Positions 5,445 to 63,992 of a stretch of DNA of 64,000 nt are shown here, piece by piece; positions within the stretch are counted from its first letter, which is position 1, and the number at the start of each line of letters is the position of its first letter. This DNA comes from Acholeplasmataceae bacterium. Lineage in GTDB: Bacteria > Bacillota_I > Bacilli_A > ML615J-28 > CAG-313. The translations under genes were made by a program, and so were the position numbers. Under the pieces are notes generated by a model. That model ran no database searches. It was not told the DNA's origin and saw only the letters and a program-made list of their open reading frames with translations. The stretch is taken from positions 1,225-65,224 of the forward strand of contig DUPC01000034.1 of assembly GCA_012838545.1 (NCBI GenBank). The letters are read 5' to 3'.

Positions 5445-5445
5445 T

Positions 5446-47958: not shown

Positions 47959-48669
47959 TTAGGCAGGGCGGACAAAAGCCTCAATTTCTTGACGCATTTT
48001 ATCAATTATGCGTTTTTCCAACCGAGATATGTAAGATTGTGAGATTCCCAGCATATCAGCCACCTCTTTTTGGGTCATGATTTCATGGCCAAAAAGACCA
48101 AAGCGCATTGTGATGATTTCTTTTTCCCGTTTGCTTAAGTGTTCGATGGCTTGATAAAGCCGTTCCTTTTTTTCTTCTTCGGTTAATTTGGTTAAAGACG
48201 ATACAGCCGAATCGCCCAAGACATCGGAAAGAACCATTTCGTTTCCTTCAGAATCGACGCTTAACACTTCGTCCAACGAAATCTCTTGACGCATTCGGTA
48301 AGTTTTGCGCAAATGCATCAATATTTCGTTTTCGATACAACGAGAGGCATAGGTGGCCAGTTTGATGTTTTTCTCTAACTTAAAGGTTTGCACGCCTTTG
48401 ATTAAACCCATGGAGCCGATACTGATTAGATCTTCCAAATTGATCTTGGTTCCCTCAAATTTTTTGGCAATAAACACCACCAAACGCAAATTGTGGATAA
48501 TCAAGGTATTGCGCGCTTCGATATCTCCTTCCTTCACCCTAAGCAAAAGCGCCATTTCCTCTTTTTCCGGAAGCGGCGCCGGTAAAATATTGGTGCTATT
48601 GATATAATAAACTCCGCCCTGCTTTACCGTCAAAATCCGAGCGATTAACTTTATTATAAATTTAATCAT
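47959..48669 (-). CDS. sigE: Pro-sigma-E (mother-cell sporulation sigma factor with an N-terminal pro-sequence)
   Basis: VYYI...LP.PL..EE, RNLRLVV.IA.KFE.TGINIEDLISIG..GLIK and KLATYASRCIENEILM are present. The C-terminus is MLGISQSYISRLEKRII. Confidence 0.85.
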   Translation of the reverse strand: MIKFIIKLIARILTVKQGGVYYINSTNILPAPLPEKEEMALLLRVKEGDIEARNTLIIHNLRLVVFIAKKFEGTKINLEDLISIGSMGLIKGVQTFKLEKNIKLATYASRCIENEILMHLRKTYRMRQEISLDEVLSVDSEGNEMVLSDVLGDSAVSSLTKLTEEEKKERLYQAIEHLSKREKEIITMRFGLFGHEIMTQKEVADMLGISQSYISRLEKRIIDKMRQEIEAFVRPA

Positions 48670-49357
48670 GACTAACCCCCATTAAATAATTAAGCAAGAC
48701 ATCATAAGCTTCCAATTTGGCAAAACAATAATAAACATCATAGGTTTTTTTGCCAATTTGCAAAAACGGTCCTTGGTAAACATTTACCTCCAACAATCCG
48801 TTTATGGAACTGATTTGTGTCGAACCAATTTGGTTAAAGCAAGTGTTTTTAAACCTTTCATCCAGAAAAACAATTGGTTTTCCCTCATATGAAGAAAGAT
48901 TGCCCGTATCCAAATAAGCTTTCAAATTCTTTAGAGGCAGGATAATAACATCATATGTAAGAACGGCTTGGTTTATGCCTATTTTAAAATTAATAATTAA
49001 ATACAAAACGACAATGTAAAAAAGCGAAATAAGAATCCATAAAATAGATTGAATATTAAAAACAACCAAACTTCCGATAAAAGCATAATTCAAGATATAC
49101 AACCCCGCAATCTGTATTATTTTTGTTTTTATTTTGCTTGGGAAGGCAACAAGTCCCATCCATATCCCAACCGTATAACGCAAAAACAAGAGTTCTCCCG
49201 GAAAAAAATAAATAAAAAGCGAAACCAAACTAATGGTTAAGGTGAGTAGGACTCGCCACCAAATGGTTCTTTCTTTAAACAAAACAAGCAGCGTTTTGAT
49301 AAAAGAGTAATTGACGAGTATAGTTGAAGCCACAATTAAATCCCAATAAAGTACCAC
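48662..49357 (-). CDS. spoIIGA: SpoIIGA-like sigma-E processing aspartic protease, short form of 231 aa
   Basis: Five N-terminal transmembrane helices are followed by AYLDTGNLS (compare B. subtilis GLIDSGNQL). It lies directly upstream of sigE with an 8-nt overlap. Confidence 0.6.
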   Translation of the reverse strand: MVLYWDLIVASTILVNYSFIKTLLVLFKERTIWWRVLLTLTISLVSLFIYFFPGELLFLRYTVGIWMGLVAFPSKIKTKIIQIAGLYILNYAFIGSLVVFNIQSILWILISLFYIVVLYLIINFKIGINQAVLTYDVIILPLKNLKAYLDTGNLSSYEGKPIVFLDERFKNTCFNQIGSTQISSINGLLEVNVYQGPFLQIGKKTYDVYYCFAKLEAYDVLLNYLMGVSHD

Positions 49358-49436
49358 TCTATCACTCCCTTATTGCCACTACAGTATAACAAAACCAAAA
49401 AAGAAAATTTGTCGAGTTATAACCCGTTTTATAAAG

Positions 49437-49505
49437 AAAAGACTAAGAAACTCTTAGTCCTTCTTTGGCAGGATTTCAACAAAAAAATCCCCAAAAGGGG
49501 ATTTA
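49437..49505 (-). terminator. Tandem hairpins (candidate terminators) between the small ORF 49519..49722 and spoIIGA
   Basis: gactaaga-aact-cttagtc and aaatcccc-aaaa-ggggattt are each followed by T-runs on the minus strand. Confidence 0.45.
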
Positions 49506-49518
49506 AGAAAAGGAAATT

Positions 49519-49722
49519 TTAAAGATCATCGTTTTCCAACTGATGTAGAAGTTCAATCAAAGTCATCTCATAACTGTTTTCGTCATCGACGACCTTAACT
49601 TCGGTGCTTAAGGTATAATCAACAAAACGGTTGTTTTTGTAAATTGCCATAATAGGGTAATTTCCCCCTAAACGATTAATGTCGCTTCTGATTTGAGCCA
49701 TCAATTGTTTTTTGTTATTCAT
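49519..49722 (-). CDS. Hypothetical small protein of 67 aa
   Basis: An AGAGGGAA RBS-like element lies upstream. I recognised no domain. Confidence 0.35.
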   Translation of the reverse strand: MNNKKQLMAQIRSDINRLGGNYPIMAIYKNNRFVDYTLSTEVKVVDDENSYEMTLIELLHQLENDDL

Positions 49723-49767
49723 AATTCATCATTCCCTCTAAGATTATTATTGCCCTTTTGGACAAAA

Positions 49768-51210
49768 TTAATCTTTTTTCAAGAATGACATTTTGATATC
49801 CCATAATTTTTTTGATAAATCTACGATATAAACATGAGGATTGTCAAAACGTTTTACCTCGTCCCAAAAGGAAGATAATTCGTTTTGGCAATAAGCGCGA
49901 ATGCTATCAAGCTCAGGTTCCGCGTAAACCTTGTTTCCGTTTAAAAAAATGGGTTCATGTAGTTTCCTTGCCCAAAAATTCGTAACCGTCTTTTTCTTCC
50001 AAGGGTGTTCTGGATGGAAAAGCAAGTACTCTTTTTCTTCGTCAATCGTTTCATCATGAACGCAAATGACATCTCCAATCGCTTTTTGGGTTATTTTGTC
50101 ATATAAACGGTAAACGCATTTGAAATGCGGGGTGGTTATTTTGGCAACATTTTCGCTGATTTTTATTTTTGGAACTATTTCGCCGTCCTTTTCCACCGCT
50201 ACCAATTTATAAACACCGCCAAAAACCGGATCGCTTTTGGAAGTAATCAGTTTTTCGCCAACCCCAAAGGCATCGATGGATGCGCCTTGGTTCAATAAAT
50301 CAAGAATCAACTTTTCGTCCAAGGAATTGGAAACCACGATTTTGCAATCAAATAGTCCCTCCTCGTCAAGCATTTTTCTGGCTTCTTTGGATAGATAGGT
50401 TAAATCACCCGAATCAATCCGAATATTACATTTGGTTAACCCCTTGGGCCATAAAACTTCCTTGACGACTTTAATGACATTGGGTACGCCGCTTTGCAAC
50501 ACATTGTACGTGTCAACCAAAAAGGTAGGATTGTCGGGATAAAGCGTTGCGTAGGTGTGAAAAGCTTCGTACTCGGAATCAAAAATCTGAACCCACGAAT
50601 GAGCCATGGTCCCGGAAGCGGGAACACCGTATAGTTTATCCGTCAAAGTGCATGATGTGCCGTTCACTCCGGCAATATAGGCTGCTCTGGCTCCCAAAAT
50701 AGCGCTGCTTGGTCCGTGAGCCCTACGCGTTCCAAATTCAAAAACGATTCTTTCTCCTGCCGAACGCATGATTCGGCTGGCTTTTGTGGCAATCAAAGAT
50801 TGGTGGTTAACAGTGAGAAGCAAGAATGTTTCAATCAATTGAGCTTCGATTGCTTTAGCCCGCACTATGATTAAAGGTTCATTGGGGAATACCACGGTGC
50901 CTTCCGGTACCGAATAAATATCCCCCGTAAAACAAAATTCCTTTATGTAACTCAAAAAAGCTTCATCAAAACGGTTTTTGGTGCGCAAGTAGTTTATATC
51001 CTCTTCGGTAAAACGAAGGTTTTCGATATATTCGATTATTTGCGACAACCCCGCAAAAATCGCATATCCCCCTTTATCGGGAACAGTGCGAAAGAATAAA
51101 TCAAAATAAACTATTTCCTCTTTTTTATTGCTTAAGAAATAACCATTGGCCATGGTTAGTTCATAAAAGTCAACCAGCAAGGCATAACTGTCGTTATTTA
51201 TCGTTTTCAT
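49768..51210 (-). CDS. pncB: Nicotinate phosphoribosyltransferase
   Basis: LLVDFYELTMANGYF N-terminus. 480-aa NAPRTase. Confidence 0.85.
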   Translation of the reverse strand: MKTINNDSYALLVDFYELTMANGYFLSNKKEEIVYFDLFFRTVPDKGGYAIFAGLSQIIEYIENLRFTEEDINYLRTKNRFDEAFLSYIKEFCFTGDIYSVPEGTVVFPNEPLIIVRAKAIEAQLIETFLLLTVNHQSLIATKASRIMRSAGERIVFEFGTRRAHGPSSAILGARAAYIAGVNGTSCTLTDKLYGVPASGTMAHSWVQIFDSEYEAFHTYATLYPDNPTFLVDTYNVLQSGVPNVIKVVKEVLWPKGLTKCNIRIDSGDLTYLSKEARKMLDEEGLFDCKIVVSNSLDEKLILDLLNQGASIDAFGVGEKLITSKSDPVFGGVYKLVAVEKDGEIVPKIKISENVAKITTPHFKCVYRLYDKITQKAIGDVICVHDETIDEEKEYLLFHPEHPWKKKTVTNFWARKLHEPIFLNGNKVYAEPELDSIRAYCQNELSSFWDEVKRFDNPHVYIVDLSKKLWDIKMSFLKKD

Positions 51211-51733
51211 AATTGATTACTTCCATTAATAAACCTTTCATGACATCAAGGCTGGCTTTGTGCAATTGGGAATCATAACTTTGGGTGGCTTTCGCATCAA
51301 TAATTATTTGGGCATCTGGGCAGGCCGCTTTCGCTATCACCGCATTCGACAACACGCAAATATTGGAAACAAGTCCGCAAACTTCGATTTCATCAAAATC
51401 TTTGCCTCTTAAATAGTTGCCTAAATCCAATGATGGGAAGGTTTCCTTGATGAAAACTTGATCGATTGGTATTACAAGGTCTTTAACTTTCCCGTATAAC
51501 TCATGCCCTTTGGTTCCCTCTAGACAATGAGGAACAGGAAGTTTTCTTCCTTCTTCGGTTTCCAGGTAATTTGGTTGGTGCGTATCCAAGGTGAAGACTA
51601 CTTCATAGTTGTTTTGGCGATAGCTTTGGATCTTTTCCACGATGATTTCTTCCAACTTTTCCGCGCCGGGAAAACCCAAGGCCCCATCCACAAAATCATT
51701 CTGAAAATCAACCACGATTAATAATTTTTTCAT
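51194..51733 (-). CDS. pncA: Nicotinamidase / isochorismatase-family hydrolase
   Basis: LLIVVDFQNDFVDG plus the catalytic Cys context GLVSNICV. The start is ATG 51733 after GAGGA. The ORF-track extension has no RBS. Confidence 0.8.
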   Translation of the reverse strand: MKKLLIVVDFQNDFVDGALGFPGAEKLEEIIVEKIQSYRQNNYEVVFTLDTHQPNYLETEEGRKLPVPHCLEGTKGHELYGKVKDLVIPIDQVFIKETFPSLDLGNYLRGKDFDEIEVCGLVSNICVLSNAVIAKAACPDAQIIIDAKATQSYDSQLHKASLDVMKGLLMEVINYENDK

Positions 51734-51807
51734 GCTTTTTCCTCTTTTCTTTTTTATACCTTTATAATTATACTTATAATGCCTTTGTTTTGCAATTTTA
51801 ATGTATC

Positions 51808-51862
51808 TAAAAAAAAACAAAAAGCGTGATAATCGATAATCATCGAAAATTTTCACGCTTTT
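51808..51862 (-). terminator. Rho-independent terminator after the beta-helix lipoprotein gene
   Basis: Stem aaaagcgtga / tcacgctttt preceded on the plus strand by aaaaaaaaacaa, which is a T-run on the minus strand. Confidence 0.5.
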
Positions 51863-51873
51863 TTGTCAATCAA

Positions 51874-53964
51874 TTAATTTTTGTTTTGCATTTCCACAAT
51901 AGCAATCGCTTTAAAGTCGACACCCGCAACCACGACGTCCGGATGGAGTTCTAGGTATTTGTCATTGTGGGTAAATGTTCCTTCAATTACCGCTTCCGCA
52001 AACAACGCCATGATAACTTCTTCTTTTTGTTGCGCGGTTCCGTTTTGGAGTACATATTGATATGTTGGGTTTTCGGCTAGTTTTTGTGCCATAGCAGTTG
52101 CCAAATCATAACCAAACGGTGTAAAGACCGCACCTTGCGAAGCGATGGCGCCAATCAATTCATTTGAATGTTTGTACGGTTCTTCGGTTTCGCTGAAAGT
52201 CCGATACGATTCCACACCGTCAATGATCAAACGCACTTGGAATTTATCATCAAAATTGGTGATAGGGTTGCTGTTTTGAAGGAGGAAGGTGAAATTGAAA
52301 CTGGAATCCTCTGGATTGGTCTCCGGTGTAACAATAATCGACTTGTCGAACGGAATGCCTTGGCTTAAAGCAAAGTCGTTGATGGCTTGCATAGCGCCTT
52401 CGATTTGACTGACCAATAAACCAATAGTTTTTAATTGATAGGCTTCAAACCACGGACTGTTACGGGAAACGATATTGTTGATTACCGTATTGTTTACATA
52501 GACAACCGGGTCGTTGATTCCTCCGCCTTCATCTTTATCGTCAATAACGGTGATTGCGGCGGAACCTGATTTTTCCAAATAGGAATCGTTAATGATGATT
52601 TCTTCGGTTCCCCAAAGAAGGATACTGGCAGCCCAAGAATTGGTGATGTAAACATAATTAATTTCCGCTTTCGTGCCGGTATGGGTGGTGAAAATACCAT
52701 CGGTGGTAAAGTTGATGCGGACATTGTCGACAATCATCGTATCGCGGGTATTGCGTAAACCGATGTAACCACCAGAGATTGTATCATCCTCAGAATCAGG
52801 CAAGTTGGAATTGCCGATAATGTACATGTTTTCGTATTTTACAAAACCGCCATCTGGCCCCGCAGTGCCTACTCCGCTTCTAAAAATACTGGATTGGGTG
52901 GCGACGATTGTGTCGTCAACATCAACAAAACCGCCTTGTTGGCTGATGTCGTTGCCGAAATCGTCAACAGTTGCATCCAAACCTTTTAGTAATGGGAGTT
53001 TACTTCCGTCAATTGTGAAGTAATTTCCGTGAACGGTTAACTCACCGATTGATGTTGCATGGTAACGACGATAAGCATTGCCATGAACGCCGCGTAGTTC
53101 TTCGGTCGAAATATCACTGAAATTGTACGGAATCTTTTCGCCATTTAAAGTGTAGTATTGGCTTTCATCAAGTTGGGCTTCGATATTGCGATGAATATGA
53201 ATGTCATGAACATCGAGGTTTGCAAAAACCGCTTTCAATTCTGCGTCAGTATAAACATTGACGCCTTCTTGAACCAATACAGTATGAGAAAGAGGTGCCA
53301 AATTGTTCCAGTTGTAACGAAGCGAAACCACGATTTCGATTTCTTTTCCTAAAGCTGCTTCTTTAAATTTTAGTCCTACTTCTTCGTTTAAGGTAGCGTA
53401 GGTGTCAAAATCAACTGCTTCCCCGTCAATTTTTAATTGATATTCAAGTCGGTCATTGGTTAAATTAAGCGGACTAATGACCGGATTAACTTGTTCATCA
53501 AATACGACACTCGATGAAGTAATATCGATAATGTAAGGTGAATCGATTCCAACCGTGTACGGCTTAACTTCATCACGCAAGAATTTGGAGAAAACCCCAC
53601 TTGGAAGGTGACCATTTAAATAACCGGTAAGGTTTTCGCCGAAGCCAAAGCTGGTAATTTGTTTAATGATTTCTATTTCATGAATTGTTACTTTAGTTTT
53701 TTCTCTGATTTTTATTTTCGCATTTCCGGGTTGCAAAAACGCAACTTTGGTTAACCCATCTTGGGTAATGACTTTTACAACATCCGCACCTTCTTCGATA
53801 GTTACGATGGACTTTTCCGGAGCATTGATGGTAACGCCGGAATAACGAACAGATTTAATTGTTTCTGGTTCTGTCAATTCCACATCGCAACTTACCAAAA
53901 AGACGGCGAATAAGCTTATAATAAGCACAACACCAAACTTGGTAAATTTTTTAAATAAATTCAT
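51874..53964 (-). CDS. Large lipoprotein (696 aa) with a predicted parallel beta-helix region
   Basis: Signal peptide plus LVSC lipobox. The repetitive segments (NVRINFTTDGIFTTHTG, VYVNNTVINNIVS...) are typical of right-handed beta-helix proteins. Confidence 0.6.
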   Translation of the reverse strand: MNLFKKFTKFGVVLIISLFAVFLVSCDVELTEPETIKSVRYSGVTINAPEKSIVTIEEGADVVKVITQDGLTKVAFLQPGNAKIKIREKTKVTIHEIEIIKQITSFGFGENLTGYLNGHLPSGVFSKFLRDEVKPYTVGIDSPYIIDITSSSVVFDEQVNPVISPLNLTNDRLEYQLKIDGEAVDFDTYATLNEEVGLKFKEAALGKEIEIVVSLRYNWNNLAPLSHTVLVQEGVNVYTDAELKAVFANLDVHDIHIHRNIEAQLDESQYYTLNGEKIPYNFSDISTEELRGVHGNAYRRYHATSIGELTVHGNYFTIDGSKLPLLKGLDATVDDFGNDISQQGGFVDVDDTIVATQSSIFRSGVGTAGPDGGFVKYENMYIIGNSNLPDSEDDTISGGYIGLRNTRDTMIVDNVRINFTTDGIFTTHTGTKAEINYVYITNSWAASILLWGTEEIIINDSYLEKSGSAAITVIDDKDEGGGINDPVVYVNNTVINNIVSRNSPWFEAYQLKTIGLLVSQIEGAMQAINDFALSQGIPFDKSIIVTPETNPEDSSFNFTFLLQNSNPITNFDDKFQVRLIIDGVESYRTFSETEEPYKHSNELIGAIASQGAVFTPFGYDLATAMAQKLAENPTYQYVLQNGTAQQKEEVIMALFAEAVIEGTFTHNDKYLELHPDVVVAGVDFKAIAIVEMQNKN

Positions 53965-54060
53965 AACCTTTTCTCCTTTTAATCTCTTAAAAATTTAATT
54001 TTTTTATTATCAATTTTTATTTTACACAAATATCTTGTGTAATTACCAGGGTTTATTATT

Positions 54061-54477
54061 TTACCATTCATCTTCACCATTGTATTTTACAAAATTAATA
54101 TAGGTCTTACGGCTGTATTCAAAACACTCTAACATTATTTTGACATCAACATCATTTACAAATGTGATTATAATCTGTTCGCCGTCCAATTTGACATTTA
54201 CGTCATCCGGCTTATTGCTTTCCACTATGATGTCGGTAATATCCACATCTGCATTATCCGGCGCATAACCCCATTTAAGAATCACTTCGTCTTGACCTTG
54301 AGGTTTCACCACAATGGCATTGTTATCATATGGCGTGCCATCGTTTTTCAGAAAGAAAATGGAATCCATTTTAATTTTGTGATATTTGCCAAAAGATTCG
54401 CTGCCGAATACGGCCACAAACGCAATCGATATGACAACCACAAGGGTAACAATAAAGATAACTAATTTTTTATTCAT
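54061..54477 (-). CDS. Small N-terminally anchored extracytoplasmic protein of 138 aa
   Basis: N-terminal transmembrane anchor. A GGAGG RBS sits 8 nt upstream and overlaps the permease stop. Confidence 0.45.
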   Translation of the reverse strand: MNKKLVIFIVTLVVVISIAFVAVFGSESFGKYHKIKMDSIFFLKNDGTPYDNNAIVVKPQGQDEVILKWGYAPDNADVDITDIIVESNKPDDVNVKLDGEQIIITFVNDVDVKIMLECFEYSRKTYINFVKYNGEDEW

Positions 54478-54480
54478 TCT

Positions 54481-56124
54481 TTATTCCTCCCCGATTTCAT
54501 TAAAGTAAAGTTTGCTTTTGCTTAAAAGCATATAAAGTCTGATGCCAAAGAAAACCAAGGAAAGCAAAAGCAATCTAATCCAACCGGTCGCCACATTTTC
54601 AAACAACATGGCAATCGCAATCCCGCAGAGCCCCAATGATATCACCGTTCCAATTAAAATGGACTTTGTGGCATTGGGATTATCGTCAATGGATTGGGAA
54701 TTGGCATATTCCAAAAACCTCGGATTCATTAAATCAAGTTCATAAGACCAAAGAATGTGTCCGGAATTGATCAATAGAAAGATTAAACCAATCATTAAAG
54801 TGATGCCACTACTAAACACATGAACTTTCAGCAGCGCAATGACGGTCGCCAAAATCATCAAAATCGAAGCGGCGAAATTAATCGTCAGTTTTGCCCAAGT
54901 GATGCTTTTCAAGTTGGTTGGCGTGGTTTTCAATAAATAAAACTCCGTTCCTTCTCTAGTTAAGGCCGTAGCACTGTTGGTGTTTGCGGTTGTGAGGAGA
55001 AGGAGTCCGATACAAAGGTTAACCCCGACAACAATTTTTTCCCCAAATGGACTGATTTTAAAACTTAAGAAAATCAGATTCAAAATATAAAGTAAAAAGG
55101 GGAGCAACAGAAGCGAAAAGAATTGGGCAATTAATTGATCGCTACTGCGTAGAAGCGATTTAATTTCTTTTTTCAGAAAGGTAAAGTAGGTATTGGAAGT
55201 TTGCTTCATTTGGGAGCGGTAGCGATTGGTTTTGGCTTGTTCGAAGGTAAAAACCGTTAAACGGAAGTAAGTCCAAATCGATACGGTAAAAACCAAAACA
55301 AGCAGTCCGGCAATTACCGCCAAGACAATGCCCAAATTGCCAAAGAGGACAGAAAAATTGTTTCCGCTAAAAATGAAATTATTAATGTTGTTGTAAAAGA
55401 GCGACAATTTGTTAAAACGCGGTATTCCTTCACTTACTCCAGTTACCAGAATATCGATAAAAGTGTCTAGCCGCAAATGTTCTTTTTGGGTGACAATGCT
55501 GACCAAAGAACTAATACCCAAAAAGGCCAAAAACATCAATATACCGACCACCACAGCATTTAAGAAAGGATGGCGTTTTAGATAGTTCACAATAAAAACA
55601 AGCGGAATCGAAAGCAGTGCTCCAATCAACACCGGAAATAACGGAATCACCACAGCCATTAAAAAGACTTTAGAGATGAAGGCAAAATCAAAACCATACA
55701 ATTGGCGAAAATGATAACCGTATCCCAGGAAGAGCGGTAGCAACAATAAGAGGTTTTTGCGGAATTCGAAGTAATAAAAAACTATTAGCTTCGACACAAA
55801 AATTTCGCTATGATGAGCGGGAAGCGCCAAAAGAATGGCATTATCCTTGCTCGTATACAAAGTATTCATCAAACCAATAGTACAAGCGATTAAAGCAAAA
55901 ATTTGCGTGAAAAAGAGAATCGCTTGCAAAAGGGTAGTGTTTACGGTAATGTAAGTTAAACCCTGAAACGTAGGGATAATCATCGCAATTAGAAATATCA
56001 ACCCAAAGAAAAGCGTAACCTTTACAGATATCCCCGCAATCACTCTGCCCTTATTGCGTTTGATCGAAAAGGCCAAGCGATTGGCTAGTTGCATGGCAAC
56101 GAGGGTTTTTAACCTATGAAACAT
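54481..56124 (-). CDS. Large polytopic permease (547 aa, about 12 TM) resembling the putative ABC-exporter membrane proteins
   Basis: It is hydrophobic throughout and overlaps the ABC ATPase gene by 11 nt. Confidence 0.6.
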   Translation of the reverse strand: MFHRLKTLVAMQLANRLAFSIKRNKGRVIAGISVKVTLFFGLIFLIAMIIPTFQGLTYITVNTTLLQAILFFTQIFALIACTIGLMNTLYTSKDNAILLALPAHHSEIFVSKLIVFYYFEFRKNLLLLLPLFLGYGYHFRQLYGFDFAFISKVFLMAVVIPLFPVLIGALLSIPLVFIVNYLKRHPFLNAVVVGILMFLAFLGISSLVSIVTQKEHLRLDTFIDILVTGVSEGIPRFNKLSLFYNNINNFIFSGNNFSVLFGNLGIVLAVIAGLLVLVFTVSIWTYFRLTVFTFEQAKTNRYRSQMKQTSNTYFTFLKKEIKSLLRSSDQLIAQFFSLLLLPFLLYILNLIFLSFKISPFGEKIVVGVNLCIGLLLLTTANTNSATALTREGTEFYLLKTTPTNLKSITWAKLTINFAASILMILATVIALLKVHVFSSGITLMIGLIFLLINSGHILWSYELDLMNPRFLEYANSQSIDDNPNATKSILIGTVISLGLCGIAIAMLFENVATGWIRLLLLSLVFFGIRLYMLLSKSKLYFNEIGEE

Positions 56125-58288
56125 TTAGTTCACCTTCTAAAAGGTTAATATCACCGACATATTTCAGGTATATTGACTCGAGCGAGATTCCTTTTTCTTT
56201 AAGATTGTGAAGGTTTTCAATCGTAACAAGTTTTCCTTTATTGATAACCGCTATCCTATCGCAAATTACTTCTACTACCTCAATAATGTGGCTGGAGAAG
56301 AAAACGATATTTCCCGCTTTCGCATGATCTTTCATGCATTCTTTGATCTGAAAAGCGCTCGTAGGATCAAGTCCGGTCAACGGTTCATCGAGCACCCAAA
56401 CTTTCGGGTTATGAATCAGCGAAGCGATTACCGATATTTTTTGTTTCATGCCATGGGAATAAGTTTTAATTTGCTTATCAATGGCATCTTCCAAACCAAA
56501 CATTTTGACGTATTTATCAAGTCGGTTCCTCCGGTCTTCGGTAGAGACCAAAAACAAATCGGCTATATAACTTACATATTCTCTTCCGGTGAGCCGTTCG
56601 TACACCGCATGATTATCCGGGACATACCCAATCATGAGTTTGGCTTGAAGTGGGTTTTTTTGAATATCAAAACCGCACACTTCAATCGTTCCTTCGGTAA
56701 TCGATTGGATACCGACCAAACTCTTGATGACAGTGCTTTTTCCGGCTCCGTTGTGGCCTAAGAAACCAAAAATCTCGCCTTGATGAACTTCTAGACTAAA
56801 GTCATCTACCGCTTTGGTTTTATTTTTTCCATAGATTTTTGAAAAATTACTTATTTTGATTGAACTGTTTACTCCCTGCATGGCATTAATCTCCTCGATG
56901 CTTAAACTTGTTGTACCCCCACCTAAAAGTTTATGGCGTACTTTTCTAACATGCCAATCATAATGATGATCGCTTACTTTATATAAAGCGTCATAAACAA
57001 ACCAGGTGGCGAAGGTCAAAAAGATAAAGCCAAAATATATACCCAGCCAATACCATGGATAAACCCTAAACGTTAAATTCCCCACCGGAATATCGAAAAT
57101 TCCGTTAAACCTTAAAGTTTTTAAGAAACCAAACTTTTTGGCTAAAAAGTCATCGTTTAGGAAAAAGTAATTGACACCTGTATCGTAATTGTAAAACCAA
57201 CTGTTGATAAAAGCAACAACGATGAAATAGATACTGAAGACACCGATAGAGGCGGTAATCAATTTAAAGTTCGGTCTTGGGAAAATATGCAAGGCAACCC
57301 CTAAAAGCGGAAGCATAAAGGCATAAAAGTGGTTAATCCAATAATGCATGCTGGTGATGGAAAAGAAGTCGCTTGATATGCTGGGGATAACAAGCGCAAT
57401 CAAGGCCCCGACCACATTGATAAAATAGTTAAAATAAAAGAAAGTTTTGCTGCGGAAGATAAAGGCGATAAACATCAAAATCATTGCCGTATTGCATAAA
57501 TGCAAGGGCCACTTGGTTAAAACTGTAAAACTGTTAAAATCATAGTTGTTAAAATAAGTGAATATCCCCGCAACCGCAAGCAACACCGTTAGCAAATAAC
57601 GGCTTTCGTACGTTTTGGAACGGAAAAGAATATACAAAACCGCCGGAACCAAAAAGCAAAGGTAAAGTATTATCCGATGCAGAGGATTGAAATCCTTAGG
57701 TGTTTGGCCCAGCGGACCAAAAATACCTCTAAAGGTATAAAGCGGCATTACAAGGAGAGTTGCAAAACTAAAAATCCCGAATGCTTGGGCTATTCTTTTA
57801 ACCGTTAAGTCTTCTTGCTCAAACTTTTTGGTTAGAAACGCTAAACACCCCATGCTTAAGAGTAAGCCTTGTTCCAATCCGAATTGAAACATCCTTAGGG
57901 TCGACCAACTAAAACTCGGACCTAAAAAGGCTTGTCCATTTAGTTTTATTAAAATAAAGTTGACAATGGCAACTATCGGGACAAAGCGGCTAAGGATGAG
58001 GGAAAAGTGTTTATTATTGAAAAAGGGGGTGACAAGGGTGACAAGAATCGCTCCCGAAGTGTAAGCCCTTAGAAGGACAAACAAGATGCGGAAAAAAGAA
58101 AAAGGTATTAGGTTTTGGGAATTGGACAATTCTTCAAAATAATCCAGCGAAAATAAACGAAAAAAATAAATAATCGCAAGGATTACTGCGCCAATTTTTA
58201 AGCTGAGTGAAGCGTAGTTTTTTTTCTTAAGTCCTATATAAATACTGGCAAGAAGAAAAAGGGGTATTATCATTAGTGCAAAAATCAT
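56114..58288 (-). CDS. ABC transporter ATP-binding protein fused to a 440-aa N-terminal integral membrane domain
   Basis: The C-terminus carries Walker A GHNGAGKST, signature YSHGMKQKISV and Walker B VWVLDEPLTGLD. The N-terminal ~440 aa hold more than 10 transmembrane helices, including the motif KWPLHLCNTAMI. Confidence 0.75.
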   Translation of the reverse strand: MIFALMIIPLFLLASIYIGLKKKNYASLSLKIGAVILAIIYFFRLFSLDYFEELSNSQNLIPFSFFRILFVLLRAYTSGAILVTLVTPFFNNKHFSLILSRFVPIVAIVNFILIKLNGQAFLGPSFSWSTLRMFQFGLEQGLLLSMGCLAFLTKKFEQEDLTVKRIAQAFGIFSFATLLVMPLYTFRGIFGPLGQTPKDFNPLHRIILYLCFLVPAVLYILFRSKTYESRYLLTVLLAVAGIFTYFNNYDFNSFTVLTKWPLHLCNTAMILMFIAFIFRSKTFFYFNYFINVVGALIALVIPSISSDFFSITSMHYWINHFYAFMLPLLGVALHIFPRPNFKLITASIGVFSIYFIVVAFINSWFYNYDTGVNYFFLNDDFLAKKFGFLKTLRFNGIFDIPVGNLTFRVYPWYWLGIYFGFIFLTFATWFVYDALYKVSDHHYDWHVRKVRHKLLGGGTTSLSIEEINAMQGVNSSIKISNFSKIYGKNKTKAVDDFSLEVHQGEIFGFLGHNGAGKSTVIKSLVGIQSITEGTIEVCGFDIQKNPLQAKLMIGYVPDNHAVYERLTGREYVSYIADLFLVSTEDRRNRLDKYVKMFGLEDAIDKQIKTYSHGMKQKISVIASLIHNPKVWVLDEPLTGLDPTSAFQIKECMKDHAKAGNIVFFSSHIIEVVEVICDRIAVINKGKLVTIENLHNLKEKGISLESIYLKYVGDINLLEGELNVS

Positions 58289-58465
58289 CGGGCATCAACC
58301 CTCCTTCTAATAAAACAACAAAAAAGCCTTTTTTATTGGCGCTATTCACATTATTATAACAAAATCGACCCCTTAATGCAATACAAATTCTAGTAAGGGG
58401 CATAAAACCTGCCTTAAAAAGCATAAGAACCCTCGGAAATTGAGGGTTCAATTTGTTTGTTTAAG

Positions 58466-59620
58466 TTATTTAAATCTGTTTTTTAACCAAATTGGGATTT
58501 TCGGATCAGTCTTGCGACTGTCTTCTTTGCGCCCCGGAATCGTTGTTTCGCCGCCACCGAATTCAAATTCCCGTTGAACCGTTTTCGGACGGGCTGAATT
58601 AACCAAGTCATCAACATTGCTTGTTTCCCGTTTTTCTTTTGCTTTGCTGTTGGTGGTATCAAAACCGGTCGCAATTACTGTTACAACAACTTCTCCTTGT
58701 AAATCCATATTAAATCCTGTACCGTGGATAATATCGATTTCGGTTGAAGAAGCACTTCTTATTTCCGAAATGACATCTTCAATTTCTTTCATGGTAATAT
58801 CCACGTCGCTGGTGATTTGAACAATTGCATCGGTTGCGCCGTTAATGTCAATTTCCAACAAAGGACTGCTGATGGCAATTCGCGCCGCATCAACCGCCCG
58901 GTTGGGACCGCTGGCAGCACCGATTCCCATTAGCGCCGTACCTTTACCTTGCAAAACTGTCCGCACGTCCGCAAAATCCACGTTAATCAATCCCGGCAGG
59001 GAAATGATTTCCGATATACCTTGGACGCCGCGACGCAAAACATTATCGGCTTCACGGAACGCTTCTAGGTATGTGGTATTATTGCCAATGACTTCCAATA
59101 GTTTATCATTTGGTACAATAATCAAAGTATCAACATAAGGACGCATTTCTTCAATGCCTTGAAGGGCTTGTTGCATCCGACGTTTACCTTCAAAACCAAA
59201 TGGTTTGGTAACAATGCCGACAACCAAAGCACCCATTTCCTTGGCATAACGCGCAATTACCGGAGCAGCACCGGTCCCGGTTCCGCCACCCATACCGGCG
59301 GTAATAAACACCATATCGGCATCCTTCAAAGCTTCGCGAATTTCCGCTTCCGATTCTTCGCAAGCCCGACGGCCGATTTCCGGATTTGCGCCGGCACCTA
59401 AGCCTTTGGTTATTTGTTTACCAATTTGGATTCGCACTTCTGCTTTCGATAATCTTAAAACTTGCGCATCGGTATTGATGGCAATATATTCGACGCCCCG
59501 GACATCATTTTCAATCATCCGATTAATCGCGTTACCGCCACCGCCGCCAATGCCAACCACTTTTAAGATTGGTCTCGAACTGAACATTTCTTCATCGCGT
59601 TGGTTCACTTGAGAATTCAT
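58466..59620 (-). CDS. ftsZ: Cell division protein FtsZ
   Basis: Tubulin signature [10 protein letters not shown]. 384 aa. Confidence 0.97.
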
Positions 59621-59846
59621 AGCATTGCTCCTTCCAATTAGGTAATAAACACACTACACTAATTTAGTATATTATATCATTATCAGTAGGGTTTTTCAAA
59701 TAAATAAACAGAAAAAATAAAAAATATGGTTTTTTAGTCCCAAAAAAGGTATCATAACAGCTTCTGGTCAACATGATTATATGTTAATTCCTAAAATTTG
59801 TCAATTGTTTTTGAAATTTGGGGTTTATTTTTGTTATGCCTTCAAA

Positions 59847-59875
59847 TTAAAAAAGGACTGAGTGTCCTTTTTTAA
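59847..59875 (-). terminator. Rho-independent terminator after cotJC
   Basis: aaaaaaggac-tgagt-gtcctttttt. Confidence 0.55.
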
Positions 59876-59879
59876 TGAA

Positions 59880-60440
59880 CTACTTGAGCCCCATTTCTTG
59901 ATACCTTTGCAACAATTCTGCAAACCTGTGATAATGGATAATCTCCCTTTGACGAAGGAAGAGCAGCGGTTGAATGACTTCGTCGCTTGTGGCGAGGTTG
60001 ATTAGATTTTCATAAACCGCCCGCGCTTTTTGTTCGGCTGCCATGTTTTCCTCAATATTGGCAATCGGATCCCCTACCGCGGAAATATAAGCGGTTGTGA
60101 ACGGTTCACCGCTACTGTTTTCCGGGAACAAATCCAGTCCGTGGTTGGAATAATACGGACCAAGTCCAGCTGCAATAATTTCTTCTTTTGTCGCACCTTT
60201 GGTTAGTTGGTAAACCATGGCGGCAATTACTTCCACGTGAGCCAATTCTTCGGTTCCAATATCGGTCAACAGAGCTTTTCCGTAATCGTCCGGCATCGTG
60301 TAGCGTTGATTGAGATAACGGATTGCGGCGGCAAGTTCGCCTTGCGGTCCACCGTATTGGGTTAAAATGTTTTTTGCCATGGGTAAATCGCGTTTGGTGA
60401 TATTAACAGGGTATTGCAATTTCTTCTCATAAATCCACAT
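59880..60440 (-). CDS. cotJC: Spore coat protein CotJC (manganese-catalase family)
   Basis: MWIYEKKLQYPV...LAAA(I/L)RYLNQRYT...LLTDIGTEE.AH.E is collinear with B. subtilis CotJC. The start overlaps the cotJB stop (TAATG). Confidence 0.85.
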   Translation of the reverse strand: MWIYEKKLQYPVNITKRDLPMAKNILTQYGGPQGELAAAIRYLNQRYTMPDDYGKALLTDIGTEELAHVEVIAAMVYQLTKGATKEEIIAAGLGPYYSNHGLDLFPENSSGEPFTTAYISAVGDPIANIEENMAAEQKARAVYENLINLATSDEVIQPLLFLRQREIIHYHRFAELLQRYQEMGLK

Positions 60441-60865
60441 TATCTTCTTCCCCCTTCCCACGGCCATCCTTGGGTCCAACTCCATGGAGTTTCAGTACCG
60501 GTTGCATTAAAGACTACCAATGGACCGAAGCGTTCTTCATAGCGCTTTTTAGCTTCGTTTAGGGCAATTTGGTTTTGCGCAAACAAATTGATGGCATGGA
60601 CGTCATCGGGGTGCGTATCCAAATACAGATTCAATTCCACCCTCATAAAATCCAGGGCTTGAACCGGCAAAAGCAATTGGTCTTTTTCTGTGAATGGCCT
60701 TGGTTCTTTCGGTACATAATTGAAATATGGCGCATAGAGTTCATTGACAAGGTTGCCACGAATAAATCCTTCCCACGCATTCGTGAAAGTTTCCTTTTCG
60801 CCTTGGAAACATTCGCGATGTTGTGAAAAAGGATTTAAAAAATAATTGACAAATTGATTGTGCAT
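60440..60865 (-). CDS. cotJB: CotJB spore coat protein with an N-terminal extension bearing a CotJA-like motif, a probable CotJA-CotJB fusion
   Basis: The C-terminal ~85 aa are VQALDFMRVELNLYLDTHP...ERFGPL...PWSWTQGWPW, matching CotJB LQAVDFVLVELTLYLDTHP...PWPW. The N-terminal ~55 aa contain GNLVNELYAPY, matching the CotJA hallmark G-T-L-F-P-x-L-Y-x-P-Y. The RBS GGAGG lies 8 nt upstream. Confidence 0.65.
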   Translation of the reverse strand: MHNQFVNYFLNPFSQHRECFQGEKETFTNAWEGFIRGNLVNELYAPYFNYVPKEPRPFTEKDQLLLPVQALDFMRVELNLYLDTHPDDVHAINLFAQNQIALNEAKKRYEERFGPLVVFNATGTETPWSWTQGWPWEGGRR

Positions 60866-60892
60866 TATTTTACCTCCTACTCATAGGGTATG

Positions 60893-60922
60893 AGGAAAAA
60901 ACCCCAATGCATGGGGTTTTAT
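60893..60922 (-). terminator. Rho-independent terminator after murB
   Basis: aaaacccca-atgca-tggggtttt followed by a T-run on the minus strand. Confidence 0.5.
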
Positions 60923-61827
60923 CCTTCTTTATTTAAAATTTTCCATTCGCACTTTAAATCGATATTGAAATATTTTTTGGCATCAGTTTGAATTAACTTC
61001 ACCAAGCGATACATTTCCTCAAAAGTGGCATTGCCCTTATTGACCAAAAAGTTGGCATGTTTCATGCTCACCCCGGCATCCCCAATCGAAAACCCTCTAT
61101 ACCCTAATGAATCGATAATTTCCCAAGCATGGATGTTTGCTGGATTGCGAAAGACGCTTCCGGCGTTCTTTTCATTTAAAGGTTGCGTATTTCTTTTTAA
61201 CTCTTTATAACGAATAATCGTTTGATATGGGTCTTCTCCCTTTGGGGCAAGCGGGAAACGAAAATACCCCCTAATAATCAAACAATCGATTTCTTGAAAA
61301 ATGCTGTGGCGATAGCTGAAATTAAAGCCGTCTGTCAGGGAAACCAAATTGCCCAAACCGTCCAAATAGTCACATTGATATAAAAAGTCCCCCGTTTCTT
61401 TTTTGTAAGCACCGCTATTCATGTAGATTAATCCCCCGATTGTTCCGGGGATTATAGCCATAAAAGCGGATCCGCTAAACCCCAATTTGGCAATAATGCG
61501 TCCGACGGTTGCGCTTTGGCATCCCGCTTCAACCATGAACTCTCCGCCTAAAAGCGGTTTGAACCCGTTGCATTTGGTCAGTTTAATTAATACTAAGTCA
61601 AAATGGTCGTCACTAACCAACAAATTGGTGCCGTTTCCAATCACATATGTGGGGATCTGATGGGATTTTAAATACTTATAGGCTATCATTAAACTATCAA
61701 GCGAATCAGGCTCGTATAAATAACGGGCAACACCGCCGATTTTTAAAGAAGTCAAATGTTGAAAACTGACATTTTCACTTATTTTGCCCAGACTAAAGTC
61801 AGTGACTAGTTCCCTGAATCCTTTCAC
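60919..61827 (-). CDS. murB: UDP-N-acetylenolpyruvoylglucosamine reductase
   Basis: It has the FAD-binding N-terminus (KIGGVARYL) and the MurB C-terminal domain. 302 aa. Confidence 0.9.
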   Translation of the reverse strand: MKGFRELVTDFSLGKISENVSFQHLTSLKIGGVARYLYEPDSLDSLMIAYKYLKSHQIPTYVIGNGTNLLVSDDHFDLVLIKLTKCNGFKPLLGGEFMVEAGCQSATVGRIIAKLGFSGSAFMAIIPGTIGGLIYMNSGAYKKETGDFLYQCDYLDGLGNLVSLTDGFNFSYRHSIFQEIDCLIIRGYFRFPLAPKGEDPYQTIIRYKELKRNTQPLNEKNAGSVFRNPANIHAWEIIDSLGYRGFSIGDAGVSMKHANFLVNKGNATFEEMYRLVKLIQTDAKKYFNIDLKCEWKILNKEG

Positions 61828-62882
61828 CTTTTAAGCACCTTCTCAATTATTGCGATAAAATCTTCAGTTGCCTTAAGAGATAAATAAGGGTTAGAAGGAT
61901 CTTTTTTCAAACCCCAGGTTCTGTTTAAACAAGAAAGAAAGGTTTCTAAAGTTAAATTCTTTTCATCAATAACAAAGGCTAAGTTTTCCTTGGCAAAACA
62001 TAAAGCATTAGATAATTGATGACCATCGCTTACATTGTCCGAAGGAATTAAAATCATGGGTTTGTTTAGTCCCAAGATTTCAAACATTGTCGTTCCTCCT
62101 GCTCGGCTCACAATTACATTTGCTTCCTTCATTAGTTCTAACAAGTTATCCGAAAAAGGAATTATTTGATAATGAGGTTTGCTGGGGGGGCCTACCGCTT
62201 GGACACACTCATCATAATAACGGTTTCCGGTAATTAAGGTTGTGGAATAACCTAGGCTTTGAGGGCACTTAAGAAACGCAATGGCTGTTTTATTTATGAT
62301 TTTGGCACCTAGGGAACCCGAAACAATCAAGATATGAGAATAACCGATGGGTTTACTTGCTTTGTTTGAAAGCTTTTTAGCCTCATCAAATCGGGGATTG
62401 CCTATCCATTTTTGCCTAGGATGAACCGGAGGAAGCGAAAAAGCAGTTAGAAAGTAATCCACCCATTTTAGCGACCATTTGTTGGCTTTGCCAATTAAAG
62501 TGTTTTGTTCGTGAATAATAATCGGACATTTTTCTTTATGGCTTAACCTCAAAAACAATCCGCTGATGGATCCGCCCATGCCAACCACTAAGGCCGGTTT
62601 ATGGAGTTTGATAATTTTTCGCATTTTGATATTATCTTTGACAATGCAAGCCAAAACTTTGGCCTTTTTAATGAGATTTTTTCCGGCTAAACCCCGAAGG
62701 GGAAAGAAATAACATTGGTCGATTTCTTTAATTAATGAAAGCAGTTTTTGTTCCGGTGATTTCTTGCATGCAATATAAATTAAAAAATCGTTTGGATGCT
62801 TTTCTTTCCATGCTTTAATAACCGGTATTGCCGGGTATATATGCCCAAGCGTTCCTCCGCCGACAAAAATAATTGTTGCCAT
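61824..62882 (-). CDS. murG: Undecaprenyl-PP-MurNAc-pentapeptide-UDP-GlcNAc GlcNAc transferase
   Basis: IIFVGGGTLGHIYPAIPV is the GT28 N-terminus. It overlaps murB by ATGA. Confidence 0.9.
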   Translation of the reverse strand: MATIIFVGGGTLGHIYPAIPVIKAWKEKHPNDFLIYIACKKSPEQKLLSLIKEIDQCYFFPLRGLAGKNLIKKAKVLACIVKDNIKMRKIIKLHKPALVVGMGGSISGLFLRLSHKEKCPIIIHEQNTLIGKANKWSLKWVDYFLTAFSLPPVHPRQKWIGNPRFDEAKKLSNKASKPIGYSHILIVSGSLGAKIINKTAIAFLKCPQSLGYSTTLITGNRYYDECVQAVGPPSKPHYQIIPFSDNLLELMKEANVIVSRAGGTTMFEILGLNKPMILIPSDNVSDGHQLSNALCFAKENLAFVIDEKNLTLETFLSCLNRTWGLKKDPSNPYLSLKATEDFIAIIEKVLKR

Positions 62883-63992
62883 TTAAATCACCTCTTGATA
62901 TTGGCTGACATTTAACAAAATACCGAGGGATATTAAGGTAAAAATCAAACTGGATCCCCCGTAACTGATAATCGGCAAGGTTATTCCGGTTACCGGAAGC
63001 AATCCCACCACCACCGCAATATTCACAAACACCTGCACAAACAACGACAGTCCCATCCCCAAAGCCACATACATTAAATAACTGTCTTTTACCCTCACGC
63101 TTATTTTGATAGTTTTATAAAAAAGCAAAAAATACAAACCAATCACAAATGCTCCGCCGATTAAACCCAGTTCCTCAACAATAATGGCAAAAATAAAATC
63201 GTTTTGAGGTTCGGGCAAAAAGAAATGCTTTTGCATACTGTTGTTATATCCTAAACCGAAAAGCCCGGAAGGGGCGATTGCAAAAAGCGATTGAATCCCC
63301 TGAAAGCCACTGCCAAGAGGATCTTGCCAGGGATTGACAAATGCTAAAATCCGTTCGATGCGATAGGGAGCACTGATAATTAAAGCGACTATCCCTAACA
63401 AACCGACAACCAACAAAAGTATAAAATACTTTAAAGGTGCTCCGCTTAAAAACAAAAGCAGAATGGTTGATGCGACAATTACCAATCCGGTTCCAAAATC
63501 GGGTTGCAGGATTATCAAAGCAAAAATTAGGCCAACAATTAGAAGGAGCACCAAAAAAGGGAAAAACTTTTCCAGTTCCAAAGCATGTTCGCTTAAGAAC
63601 TTGGCCAAAAGAAGCATAATGGTTAATTTCATGACTTCAGCGGGTTGGATGCTGAAATTGCCAAAACCGATCCAACTTCGAGCACCACCCCTTACAATAC
63701 CGATTCCAGGAATTAAAACCAAAATTAACAATAACAAGGCAATAAAAAAATACCATGAGGTATATTTTTTAATTGTCATGATATTAATGCGCATTGCCAG
63801 ATGCATACCGATTAGACCAAGGCAGGCAAACAATAATTGTCTTTTGAAATAATACGTTGCATCATGAAACTTGAACTTAGCAACTACATTGCTGGCGCTG
63901 TAAACCATTAACAATCCGGTCGCAACCAGAATCAAGATATTGATATATAATAGTTTATCTATGCGCTTGTTCATATTTTTACCCCATATCAT
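62883..63992 (-). CDS. ftsW: SEDS-family peptidoglycan glycosyltransferase of the FtsW/SpoVE type
   Basis: It has 10 transmembrane helices and carries motifs FFLPEPQNDFIFA and PLPFISYGGSS-like (LPIISYGGSSL). It is adjacent to murG as spoVE/ftsW is in the dcw cluster. The start is either 63992 or 63974. Confidence 0.85.
   Translation of the reverse strand: MIWGKNMNKRIDKLLYINILILVATGLLMVYSASNVVAKFKFHDATYYFKRQLLFACLGLIGMHLAMRINIMTIKKYTSWYFFIALLLLILVLIPGIGIVRGGARSWIGFGNFSIQPAEVMKLTIMLLLAKFLSEHALELEKFFPFLVLLLIVGLIFALIILQPDFGTGLVIVASTILLLFLSGAPLKYFILLLVVGLLGIVALIISAPYRIERILAFVNPWQDPLGSGFQGIQSLFAIAPSGLFGLGYNNSMQKHFFLPEPQNDFIFAIIVEELGLIGGAFVIGLYFLLFYKTIKISVRVKDSYLMYVALGMGLSLFVQVFVNIAVVVGLLPVTGITLPIISYGGSSLIFTLISLGILLNVSQYQEVI

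Follow-up and report, generated by a model that had tools for sequence, protein, structure and literature searches.

How might an ATP-binding cassette (ABC) ATPase be used when the same polypeptide carries a membrane domain of an acyltransferase-type family? This question is raised by a locus in a 64,000-nucleotide stretch of DNA from Acholeplasmataceae bacterium (GenBank assembly GCA_012838545.1, contig DUPC01000034.1, positions 1,225 to 65,224), which we call the window and in which positions are counted unless another locus is named. Four open reading frames (ORFs) on the minus strand, here called genes A to D, were all present with the coordinates and lengths given in an initial annotation made from the sequence. 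Gene A (56114..58288) encodes 724 amino acids that form a six-helix extension, a TMEM164/YwaF-type (ATGY) membrane domain and an ABC ATPase; gene B (54481..56124) encodes a permease of 547 amino acids and about 12 helices from the PF16949/PF09847 family; gene C (54061..54477) encodes 138 amino acids with one N-terminal membrane helix and a small extracytoplasmic domain; and gene D (51874..53964) encodes a 696-amino acid lipoprotein with immunoglobulin (Ig)-like domains and a right-handed beta-helix. This four-gene membrane architecture is very probably correct. As its mechanism we propose ATP-linked acyl transfer at the outer leaflet, a reading that, taken as a whole, we advance tentatively.

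An acyltransferase-family membrane domain joined to an ABC ATPase

The membrane part of A had been likened to the YwaF/TMEM164 family on the strength of a KWPLHLC motif, which is present in A with its cysteine codon at 57494-57496. Curated profile models show that this guess was right: PF14808 (TMEM164) matched residues 201-430 with 85.6 bits against a cut-off of 25 (E=4.5e-24, Pfam), and TIGR02206 ("TMEM164-related integral membrane acyltransferase") scored 81.2 bits against a cut-off of 75 with residues 1-462 as the query (NCBIfam). Reed et al. unite AIG1, TMEM164, GPC1, YwaF and YpjA in the ATGY superfamily, in whose six-helix core helix 2 bears the nucleophile (Cys, Ser or Thr) and helix 4 an invariant His; TMEM164 itself (C123, H181) is a coenzyme A (CoA)-independent phospholipid-to-lysolipid transacylase. 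The core of A (residues 201-445; 56954..57688, minus strand) shows the same residue arrangement, with C265 (the PLHLC cysteine) at the start of helix 264-278, i.e., core helix 2, and H320 (codon 57329-57331) within helix 311-332, i.e., core helix 4. The two residues are 55 positions apart, compared with 58 in TMEM164. C265, H263 and H320 were invariant in an alignment of 31 fusion proteins sharing 35-89% identity (31/31) and in a set of 92 A sequences (92/92), and P261, N291, G294, P327, R338 and H204 were likewise invariant among the 31. These patterns make the Cys-His pair a candidate acyltransferase active site that would work through an acyl-Cys intermediate. The Lnt, Lit, LhaT, LnsAB and Lnb families were not among the Pfam and NCBIfam matches of A.

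Known TMEM164/YwaF proteins are stand-alone and ~220-300 amino acids long, whereas in A the core is preceded by a six-helix extension and followed by an ABC ATPase, and the protein is encoded in a fixed four-gene module. The extension (residues 1-200; 57689..58288, minus strand) has no Pfam or NCBIfam match, and the possibility that it is an internal duplication of the ATGY fold was rejected by hhalign against the core (probability 0.5%). It is nevertheless kept across the fusion family and in a naturally split form of A described below. The ATPase domain (residues 472-712; 56153..56875, minus strand) falls in the ABC-2/DrrA-like group, with ABC_tran (PF00005) matching residues 495-637 (E=1.1e-26). 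Its Walker A (GHNGAGKS), signature (YSHGMKQK) and Walker B (LDEP, E635) motifs and H667 were invariant in both the 31 and the 92 sequences, so this domain should hydrolyse ATP. Foldseek matches of A in the PDB were dominated by the ATPase domain, for which the closest structures were EcsA (9a6w_B), TM0544, LptB and ABCA1/4/7 (TM-scores up to 0.90, normalised to the target); EcsA, LptB and ABCA1/4/7 belong to systems that handle lipids or hydrophobic substrates.

The fused ATPase also allows the membrane domain to be oriented. An AlphaFold2 (AF2) model of A from 31 sequences (predicted local distance difference test score, pLDDT, 83 overall and 85-95 in the membrane part) contains 13 membrane helices, a long helix reaching residue 455, a low-confidence or flexible linker (455-470) and the ATPase domain, in agreement with the earlier description of A as a membrane domain of more than 10 transmembrane helices fused to an ABC ATPase. 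The ATPase is necessarily cytoplasmic, and helices alternating back from it set the Cys-His pair, as predicted from this model, in the outer-leaflet half of the membrane: C265 at the outer start of its helix and H320 nine residues into its helix from the outside. Across the same 31 sequences, loop charges alternate in a way that fits an N-out, C-in topology: the predicted inner loops carry a net positive charge (+0.4 to +2.8), and all but one of the predicted outer loops a net negative one. With lengths of just 1-8 residues, the loops that A exposes to the cytoplasm leave no room for the coupling elements that engage an ABC ATPase, so B rather than A likely couples to the ATPase domains.

These results bear on the most conventional reading of the locus, namely that it encodes an ordinary ABC-2 drug or peptide exporter (for bacitracin, a lantibiotic or daunorubicin), with a divergent permease in A and with C and D as unrelated neighbours. 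Public records point that way, naming A "DrrA" or "ABC-2 type transport system ATP-binding protein" (elsewhere it is "YwaF family protein, partial", and D is "hypothetical protein"), and the best NCBIfam matches of the ATPase are drrA, GldA and galliderm_ABC. All of these matches, however, fall below the curated cut-offs: TIGR01188 drrA scored 215.8 against 312.45, TIGR03522 (GldA) 202.8 against 402.6, and TIGR03740 (lantibiotic protection) 139.6 against 309.75. Curated thresholds place A in the TMEM164/YwaF family and among the ABC ATPases but outside the DrrA, GldA and lantibiotic types. An ordinary permease-ATPase fusion, which the initial annotation had named as the plain alternative, is ruled out for A, since its membrane domain matched TMEM164/TIGR02206 and no permease family, ABC-2 models included, at E<=1 (Pfam) or E<=10 (NCBIfam, residues 1-462). 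The inner loops are too short for the coupling helices of a permease, C and D are linked to the module in every locus with room for them, fusions included, and no regulator, immunity or biosynthetic gene accompanies it. The exporter reading is thus largely refuted at the level of sequence, and we regard it as highly improbable.

Partner proteins and the linkage of the four genes

B had been described as a permease of about 12 transmembrane helices, and this holds: PF16949 matched B with 51.2 bits against a cut-off of 25.7 (E=1.3e-13), B orthologues matched PF09847 (12TM_1), and hydropathy analysis gave ~12 hydrophobic segments with short loops. Distant B orthologues scored under the PF16949 cut-off. 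ABC2_membrane models matched neither the B halves nor the distant orthologues, BLAST of the two halves against each other detected no repeat, and a sequence search of solved structures with B returned nothing significant. Each half of B starts with a basic stretch and bears a loop (SKDNAILLALP at ~92 and TREGTEFYLLKTTP at ~389, respectively) that looks to us like the coupling loop on the cytoplasmic side of ABC-2 permeases, a lead only, given that no ABC2_membrane model matches. The presence of a single B with two such loops beside one ATPase gene suggests an A2-B complex. At one locus (L105, 6895-8501) B was called as two ORFs of 187 and 351 amino acids, the result of a frameshift or of a natural division between its two halves.

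C consists of a single N-terminal membrane helix containing FVAVFGS and ~110 extracytoplasmic residues, and the end of its helix, V(A/G)(I/V)(F/W)G, is conserved across loci, as expected of the N-anchored extracytoplasmic protein that it had been taken for. The C counterparts in L002 and L005 match the Ig-like domain Big_2. D is a lipoprotein by its predicted lipobox, LVSC (Cys26, codon 53887-53889), and its AF2 model (37 sequences; pLDDT 86, predicted template modelling score, pTM, 0.85) comprises two Ig-like domains, a right-handed beta-helix of short stacked strands at ~235-500, a long helix and, at the C-terminus, an alpha/beta domain. The beta-helix lipoprotein of the initial annotation is therefore recovered by lipobox and model together. 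Pectate_lyase_5 matched 12/37 D relatives and Beta_helix 8/37.

For D, an exhaustive HMMER search found 187 representatives in 1.84 billion proteins, and a word-indexed search found 2 clusters. The conserved core, equivalent to residues ~95-570, lies near the C-terminus of proteins of 650-2,470 amino acids, behind variable Flg_new and Big repeats. Among 60 non-redundant sequences, the residues conserved at >=80% were Gly, Asn and aromatics (Phe, Trp and Tyr, including Y298) plus R300; no Asp, Glu, His or Lys reached 80%. This lack of conserved acidic, His or Lys residues makes D look like a module for binding or scaffolding and not like a lyase or hydrolase, and a catalytic role for D is unsupported. 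Foldseek of D against PDB and viral models returned mostly Ig-domain proteins, along with isopullulanase and pectin-lyase-fold proteins, and nothing function-specific; a sequence search of solved structures with the D profile returned nothing significant. An additional 1,525-amino acid Flg_new protein was seen at the contig edge of L017 (1-1394), and in L035 (2-9898) a 3,299-amino acid D-like ORF ends 30 nt ahead of A; these two loci may carry tandem or second modules.

Linkage of the four genes outside this genome was the point on which the view of the locus as a unit had been made to depend. We found A, B, C and D together in ~100 loci of uncultured Bacilli, and the presence of homologues of all four, similarly arranged, in so many other loci demonstrates that they are not chance ORFs. 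A word-indexed search of 5.8 billion proteins yielded ~35 protein clusters with the same A fusion. Twelve loci come from metagenome-assembled genomes (MAGs) labelled Bacillales UBA1427, Acholeplasmatales, Mollicutes, Bacilli and Candidatus (Ca.) Enteromonas; host taxonomy here and below means the names of the MAG records. L001 is 88% identical and keeps the whole synteny. The order is A-B-C-D in L002 and L004, is permuted to D-A-B-C in L006-L012, and is A-B-C-D again for the distant A homologues in L015-L018, where D has 691-1,919 amino acids. Searches from the D side reach the same module (L020, L021, L022, L105 and L106, and L019 within contig limits); two further look-ups from D fell on contigs of uninformative length.

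In a metagenome scan, 275 stretches encoded relatives, and we counted gene order in the best 80 loci, annotated with our own profiles. A was a fused core plus ATPase in 75/80 loci, the remainder being cut or frameshifted. B followed A in 68/69 loci with room, and C followed B in 56/56. C was followed by the D core in 35 loci and by a lipoprotein ORF truncated at the contig end in 15, another 4 had a C-D fusion, and 4 had no room beyond C; among the 80, no locus with room lacked D. Divergence is parallel among the four proteins and ranks A > B > C ~ D. The sole B exception, L026 (9763-14738), has an A homologue truncated after Walker A (503 amino acids) that looks like a decayed copy, with an unrelated ABC ATPase and two FtsX-type permeases in place of B-C-D. 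At L052 (13313-14053) a second A-type gene begins directly after D, possibly a tandem module.

Natural variants of the module show which parts belong together. In L021 (1770-11535), A is split into a membrane gene (4654-6072, 472 amino acids) and an ATPase gene (6069-6797, 242 amino acids) that overlap by 4 nt and are followed by B, C and D. The membrane protein retains PLHLC and NH and shares 34% identity with A from end to end. The fusion in A thus unites two proteins that also work together when separate. Conversely, four loci (L038 11301-13031; L085 5813-8932; L095 4692-7829; L098 3599-6346) encode C-D fusions in which the D beta-helix core comes after the membrane helix and Ig-like domain of C and the lipobox is absent, indicating that C and D form one extracytoplasmic arm.

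The fusions also bear on a second reading, lipoprotein-anchor remodelling, in which the Cys-His domain would N-acylate or transacylate the diacylglyceryl-cysteine of D, acting like Lnt, Lit or LhaT, and the ABC part would supply donor lipid, clear lyso-lipid or extract the lipoprotein as Lol does. D relatives have a lipobox in 16/16 loci and in 34/34 complete unfused copies, and the predicted active site lies at the outer leaflet, where lipoprotein N-termini lie. LhaT (YpjA) of B. subtilis, from the same superfamily, N-acetylates lipoproteins on the outer face (PMC12345273), enzymes that modify the N-terminus (LnsAB, Lit, Lnb) are lineage-specific (PMC11573676), N-acylated lipoproteins occur in Firmicutes and mollicutes despite the absence of an Lnt homologue (PMC3850990), and Lnt too uses an acyl-Cys intermediate. 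In the four C-D fusions (from two lineages), however, D has no lipobox and is joined to the C helix while the catalytic residues of A persist; a membrane helix there replaces the lipid anchor, which speaks against the N-terminal Cys of D as an obligatory acyl acceptor. Furthermore, the conserved part of D is its distal core and the stretch after the lipobox Cys is variable, a private acyltransferase and ABC engine for one lipoprotein would be unprecedented, and the family is too rare to be the general N-acyltransferase of these bacteria. LhaT itself belongs to another branch (DUF1405) that A does not match, and it has neither an ATPase nor comparable fixed partner genes; the flippase for its donor lipid is unknown (PMC12345273), whereas A has a transporter physically attached. 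We consider anchor remodelling unlikely.

ATP-linked acyl transfer as a candidate mechanism

The reading that we prefer is a machine for ATP-linked acyl transfer at the outer leaflet. The cytoplasmic ATPase domains of two A copies would dock on one 12-helix B to give an A2-B engine of the ABC-2/LptB/ABCA-like kind, and each A would add a YwaF/TMEM164-type domain with its Cys265-His320 site in the outer half of the membrane. The C helix would insert into the A-B assembly, and the Ig-like domain of C would hold the conserved core of D, which would act as a non-enzymatic beta-helix scaffold, lipid-tethered or, in some lineages, fused to C. At the outer leaflet, the ATPase cycle would move or position a molecule that is itself a lipid or is linked to one, and the Cys-His domain would transfer an acyl chain without CoA via acyl-Cys265, as in TMEM164; a membrane lipid would be the donor and a molecule displayed by the C-D arm the acceptor, or vice versa. 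The proposal goes beyond our observations (the identity of the domains, the conservation of catalytic and ATPase residues, the predicted topology and the strict linkage of the four genes) in the A2-B stoichiometry, the physical contact with C and D, the direction of transport and the identities of donor and acceptor. LhaT, also of the ATGY superfamily, sets a precedent, as it carries out acyl transfer at the external face of the membrane (PMC12345273). An envelope-modifying or export system, as the initial annotation had suggested, is consistent with these data. A stronger version of the proposal, that this is the first ATP-coupled acylation machine outside the cytoplasm, in which the ABC engine would feed the fused acyltransferase and the target would sit on the beta-helix arm, strikes us as doubtful.

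Several points weigh against outer-leaflet acyl transfer. The topology was predicted from an AF2 monomer model, from charge bias and from where the ATPase lies, and the predicted cavity of human TMEM164 opens to the cytosol (Reed et al.), which means that an outward-facing site is not a rule of the family. Phospholipid donors are already in the outer leaflet, leaving the need for ATP unexplained, and the module conserves no biosynthetic enzyme that would indicate a substrate. Gene linkage and fusions are the sole basis for proposing contacts among the four proteins. PLHLC was one of two retrieval patterns for the 80 metagenomic loci, so its conservation in that set is partly an ascertainment effect; H320 was in neither pattern. 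Finally, we found no experiment on any bacterial YwaF-family protein in the searchable literature.

The same components could instead serve to export a lipid, glycolipid or lipoglycan that is acylated or deacylated at the outer leaflet, with C-D binding or receiving the product by the logic of Lpt, Mla or ABCA1. LptB and ABCA1/4/7 are among the nearest ATPase structures, TMEM164 is a lipid-to-lysolipid transacylase, and beta-helix domains of the kind matched in D relatives (Beta_helix, Pectate_lyase_5) commonly bind glycans. The split module in L021 is preceded by same-strand LPG_synthase_TM and GT4 genes with a PAP2 gene nearby, and a GT4 gene lies near the module in L022. By record names, the module occurs both in walled spore-formers (the window) and in genomes labelled Acholeplasmatales or Mollicutes, a distribution that favours a membrane-level substrate over a wall polymer, although the wall-less status of the latter hosts is presumed from those names. 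Against export, no glycosyltransferase or lipid-synthesis gene is conserved beside the module, the neighbours in the window, L015-L018, L105 and L106 being unrelated, and D has no known lipid-carrier fold. We judge this reading improbable, to the same degree as anchor remodelling.

A further possibility runs in the opposite direction, i.e., scavenging of external lipid, with D capturing lipid material from the host or the environment, the outward transacylase using it directly to build cell lipids and the ABC part importing the products. Lineages of the Mollicutes/Acholeplasmatales type have reduced genomes and rely on external fatty acids, and the hosts of the module are gut and digester Bacilli that include records with these labels. 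CoA-independent transacylation suits the cell exterior, the stalk of D varies widely among relatives (from 650 to >3,000 amino acids), and DegV, PlsC-like and PAP2 genes lie near some loci. Such lipid genes are sporadic, however, the ATPase group consists mostly of exporters, D has no recognisable lipid-binding domain, and the host of the window is a spore-former with ordinary envelope genes. Scavenging seems to us quite improbable, and more so than export.

Known multi-part systems resemble the module in function only. NosDFY is an ABC-2-like ATPase, a permease and the extracytoplasmic beta-helix protein NosD, encoded together with an associated lipoprotein, and it shares with the module the set of ATPase, permease and beta-helix partner. 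D is not a NosD homologue, though: the window protein does not match NosD (PF05048), and only 1/37 relatives does, weakly (E=0.0043). B is a 12-helix PF16949 protein and not NosY, nothing around the module relates to copper or N2O reductase, and no membrane enzyme is attached to NosF. In LptB2FGC, the ATPase LptB is structurally near that of A, and the single-pass C with a beta-sandwich recalls LptC, while Lnt together with LolCDE pairs N-acylation with ABC extraction. Unlike these, the module has its acyltransferase fused rather than separate, and B has no sequence relationship to LptF/G or LolC/E; its hosts, as Bacilli, presumably have no outer membrane, unlike those of Lpt and Lol. EcsAB-RasP of B. 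subtilis provides the best ATPase structure (EcsA in the RasP-EcsA model, 9a6w_B) and places an ATPase beside an intramembrane enzyme, but the metalloprotease RasP is not fused to the ATPase, the permease EcsB differs from B, and there is no beta-helix partner.

Genomic setting and meaning of the module

Transcription signals delimit A-B-C-D as a single unit. A promoter-like site on the minus strand (58353..58381; TTGCAT, a 17-nt spacer and TATAAT with a preceding TGn, i.e., an extended -10) matches the consensus and is followed by an AGGAGG ribosome-binding site and the ATG of A. On its other side, a terminator-like hairpin read from the sequence lies directly 3' of ftsZ (58449-58427), and a second terminator-like hairpin with a U-tract lies 3' of D (51809..51860, minus strand; RNA fold dG -18 kcal/mol, z -3.4). 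A and B overlap by 11 nt, and the B-C and C-D gaps are 3 nt and 96 nt. The guanine-cytosine content is uniform over the region (0.35-0.44), and an Rfam scan of 49000-60000 found no riboswitch or other known RNA at E<=0.1.

The module had been described as part of a ~9-kb interruption of the Bacillus gene order ftsA-ftsZ-bpr-spoIIGA-sigE-sigG. The interruption is real, with ~9.1 kb between ftsZ (58466-59620) and spoIIGA, and pncA/pncB (49768-51733) are followed by a spoIIGA-like ORF, sigE and sigG; the claim fails for ftsA, which does not adjoin ftsZ. The region 59880-63992 contains, in this order, spoVE/ftsW, murG, murB, cotJB and a cotJC-like Mn catalase and leads into ftsZ, with neither ftsA nor divIB beside ftsZ, and the cotJB/cotJC-like spore-coat pair occupies the place of ftsA in the Bacillus order. 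A pncA-like ORF (51194-51856, GTG at 51856) is overextended, and pncA probably starts at ATG 51733, which has a ribosome-binding site. A TTGCAA-17-TATAAT site (51795-51767) fits a separate pncA-pncB unit, ended by a terminator-like hairpin (49504-49485) before the spoIIGA-like gene. That gene (48662-49357) has no Pfam match at E<=0.1 and is 79% identical to its L001 counterpart; the gene in the same position in L015 matches Peptidase_U4. Farther away, 41494-44364 encodes a 956-amino acid UvrD/REP-type helicase with C-terminal zinc-ribbon matches.

Across lineages this setting is not kept. spoIIGA adjoins the module only in L001 and L015, the latter retaining spoIIGA-sigE-sigG, and the neighbourhoods in L016-L018, L021, L022, L105 and L106 are unrelated. 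The ftsZ/spoIIGA site is thus unconserved beyond the closest lineage and its position is uninformative on function, and, given the unrelated neighbourhoods, we reject a functional link to cell division or sporulation argued from that position. An anti-phage defence system was also rejected, as PADLOC gave generic ATPase similarity for A and nothing for B, C or D. Proteins near-identical to those of the window are deposited under 'Tenericutes bacterium', 'Acholeplasmataceae bacterium' and 'Bacilli bacterium'. The window encodes sporulation (spoIIGA-like, sigE, sigG, cotJB/JC, spoVE) and peptidoglycan (murB, murG) genes, and its host may be a walled, spore-forming relative of wall-less lineages.

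We found no paper in the searchable literature that describes the function of a bacterial YwaF protein or a TMEM164-ABC fusion. Judged by its sequences, the module appears to be a variant ABC system, one with an appended membrane acyltransferase-type domain and a dedicated surface arm. One immediate consequence is a correction of annotation, as A is recorded as a daunorubicin-resistance or ABC-2 ATPase and D as hypothetical. The hosts are uncultured gut and digester Bacilli, for which fast-evolving, length-variable surface proteins likely matter in interaction with their surroundings. The bacterial YwaF/TMEM164 family is widespread, and the A fusion offers an entry point to it: the cytoplasmic ATPase pins the topology and with it the predicted outer-leaflet Cys-His site, the module names B, C and D as obligatory partners, and together they predict a concrete complex for expression and assay. 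How acyl transfer outside the cytoplasm is powered or supplied is an open question, to which an acyltransferase joined to an ABC engine is a candidate solution. If the proposed mechanism is true, it would give the bacterial YwaF family its first function and its first topology, and it would represent a new coupling of ATP hydrolysis to chemistry at the outer leaflet.

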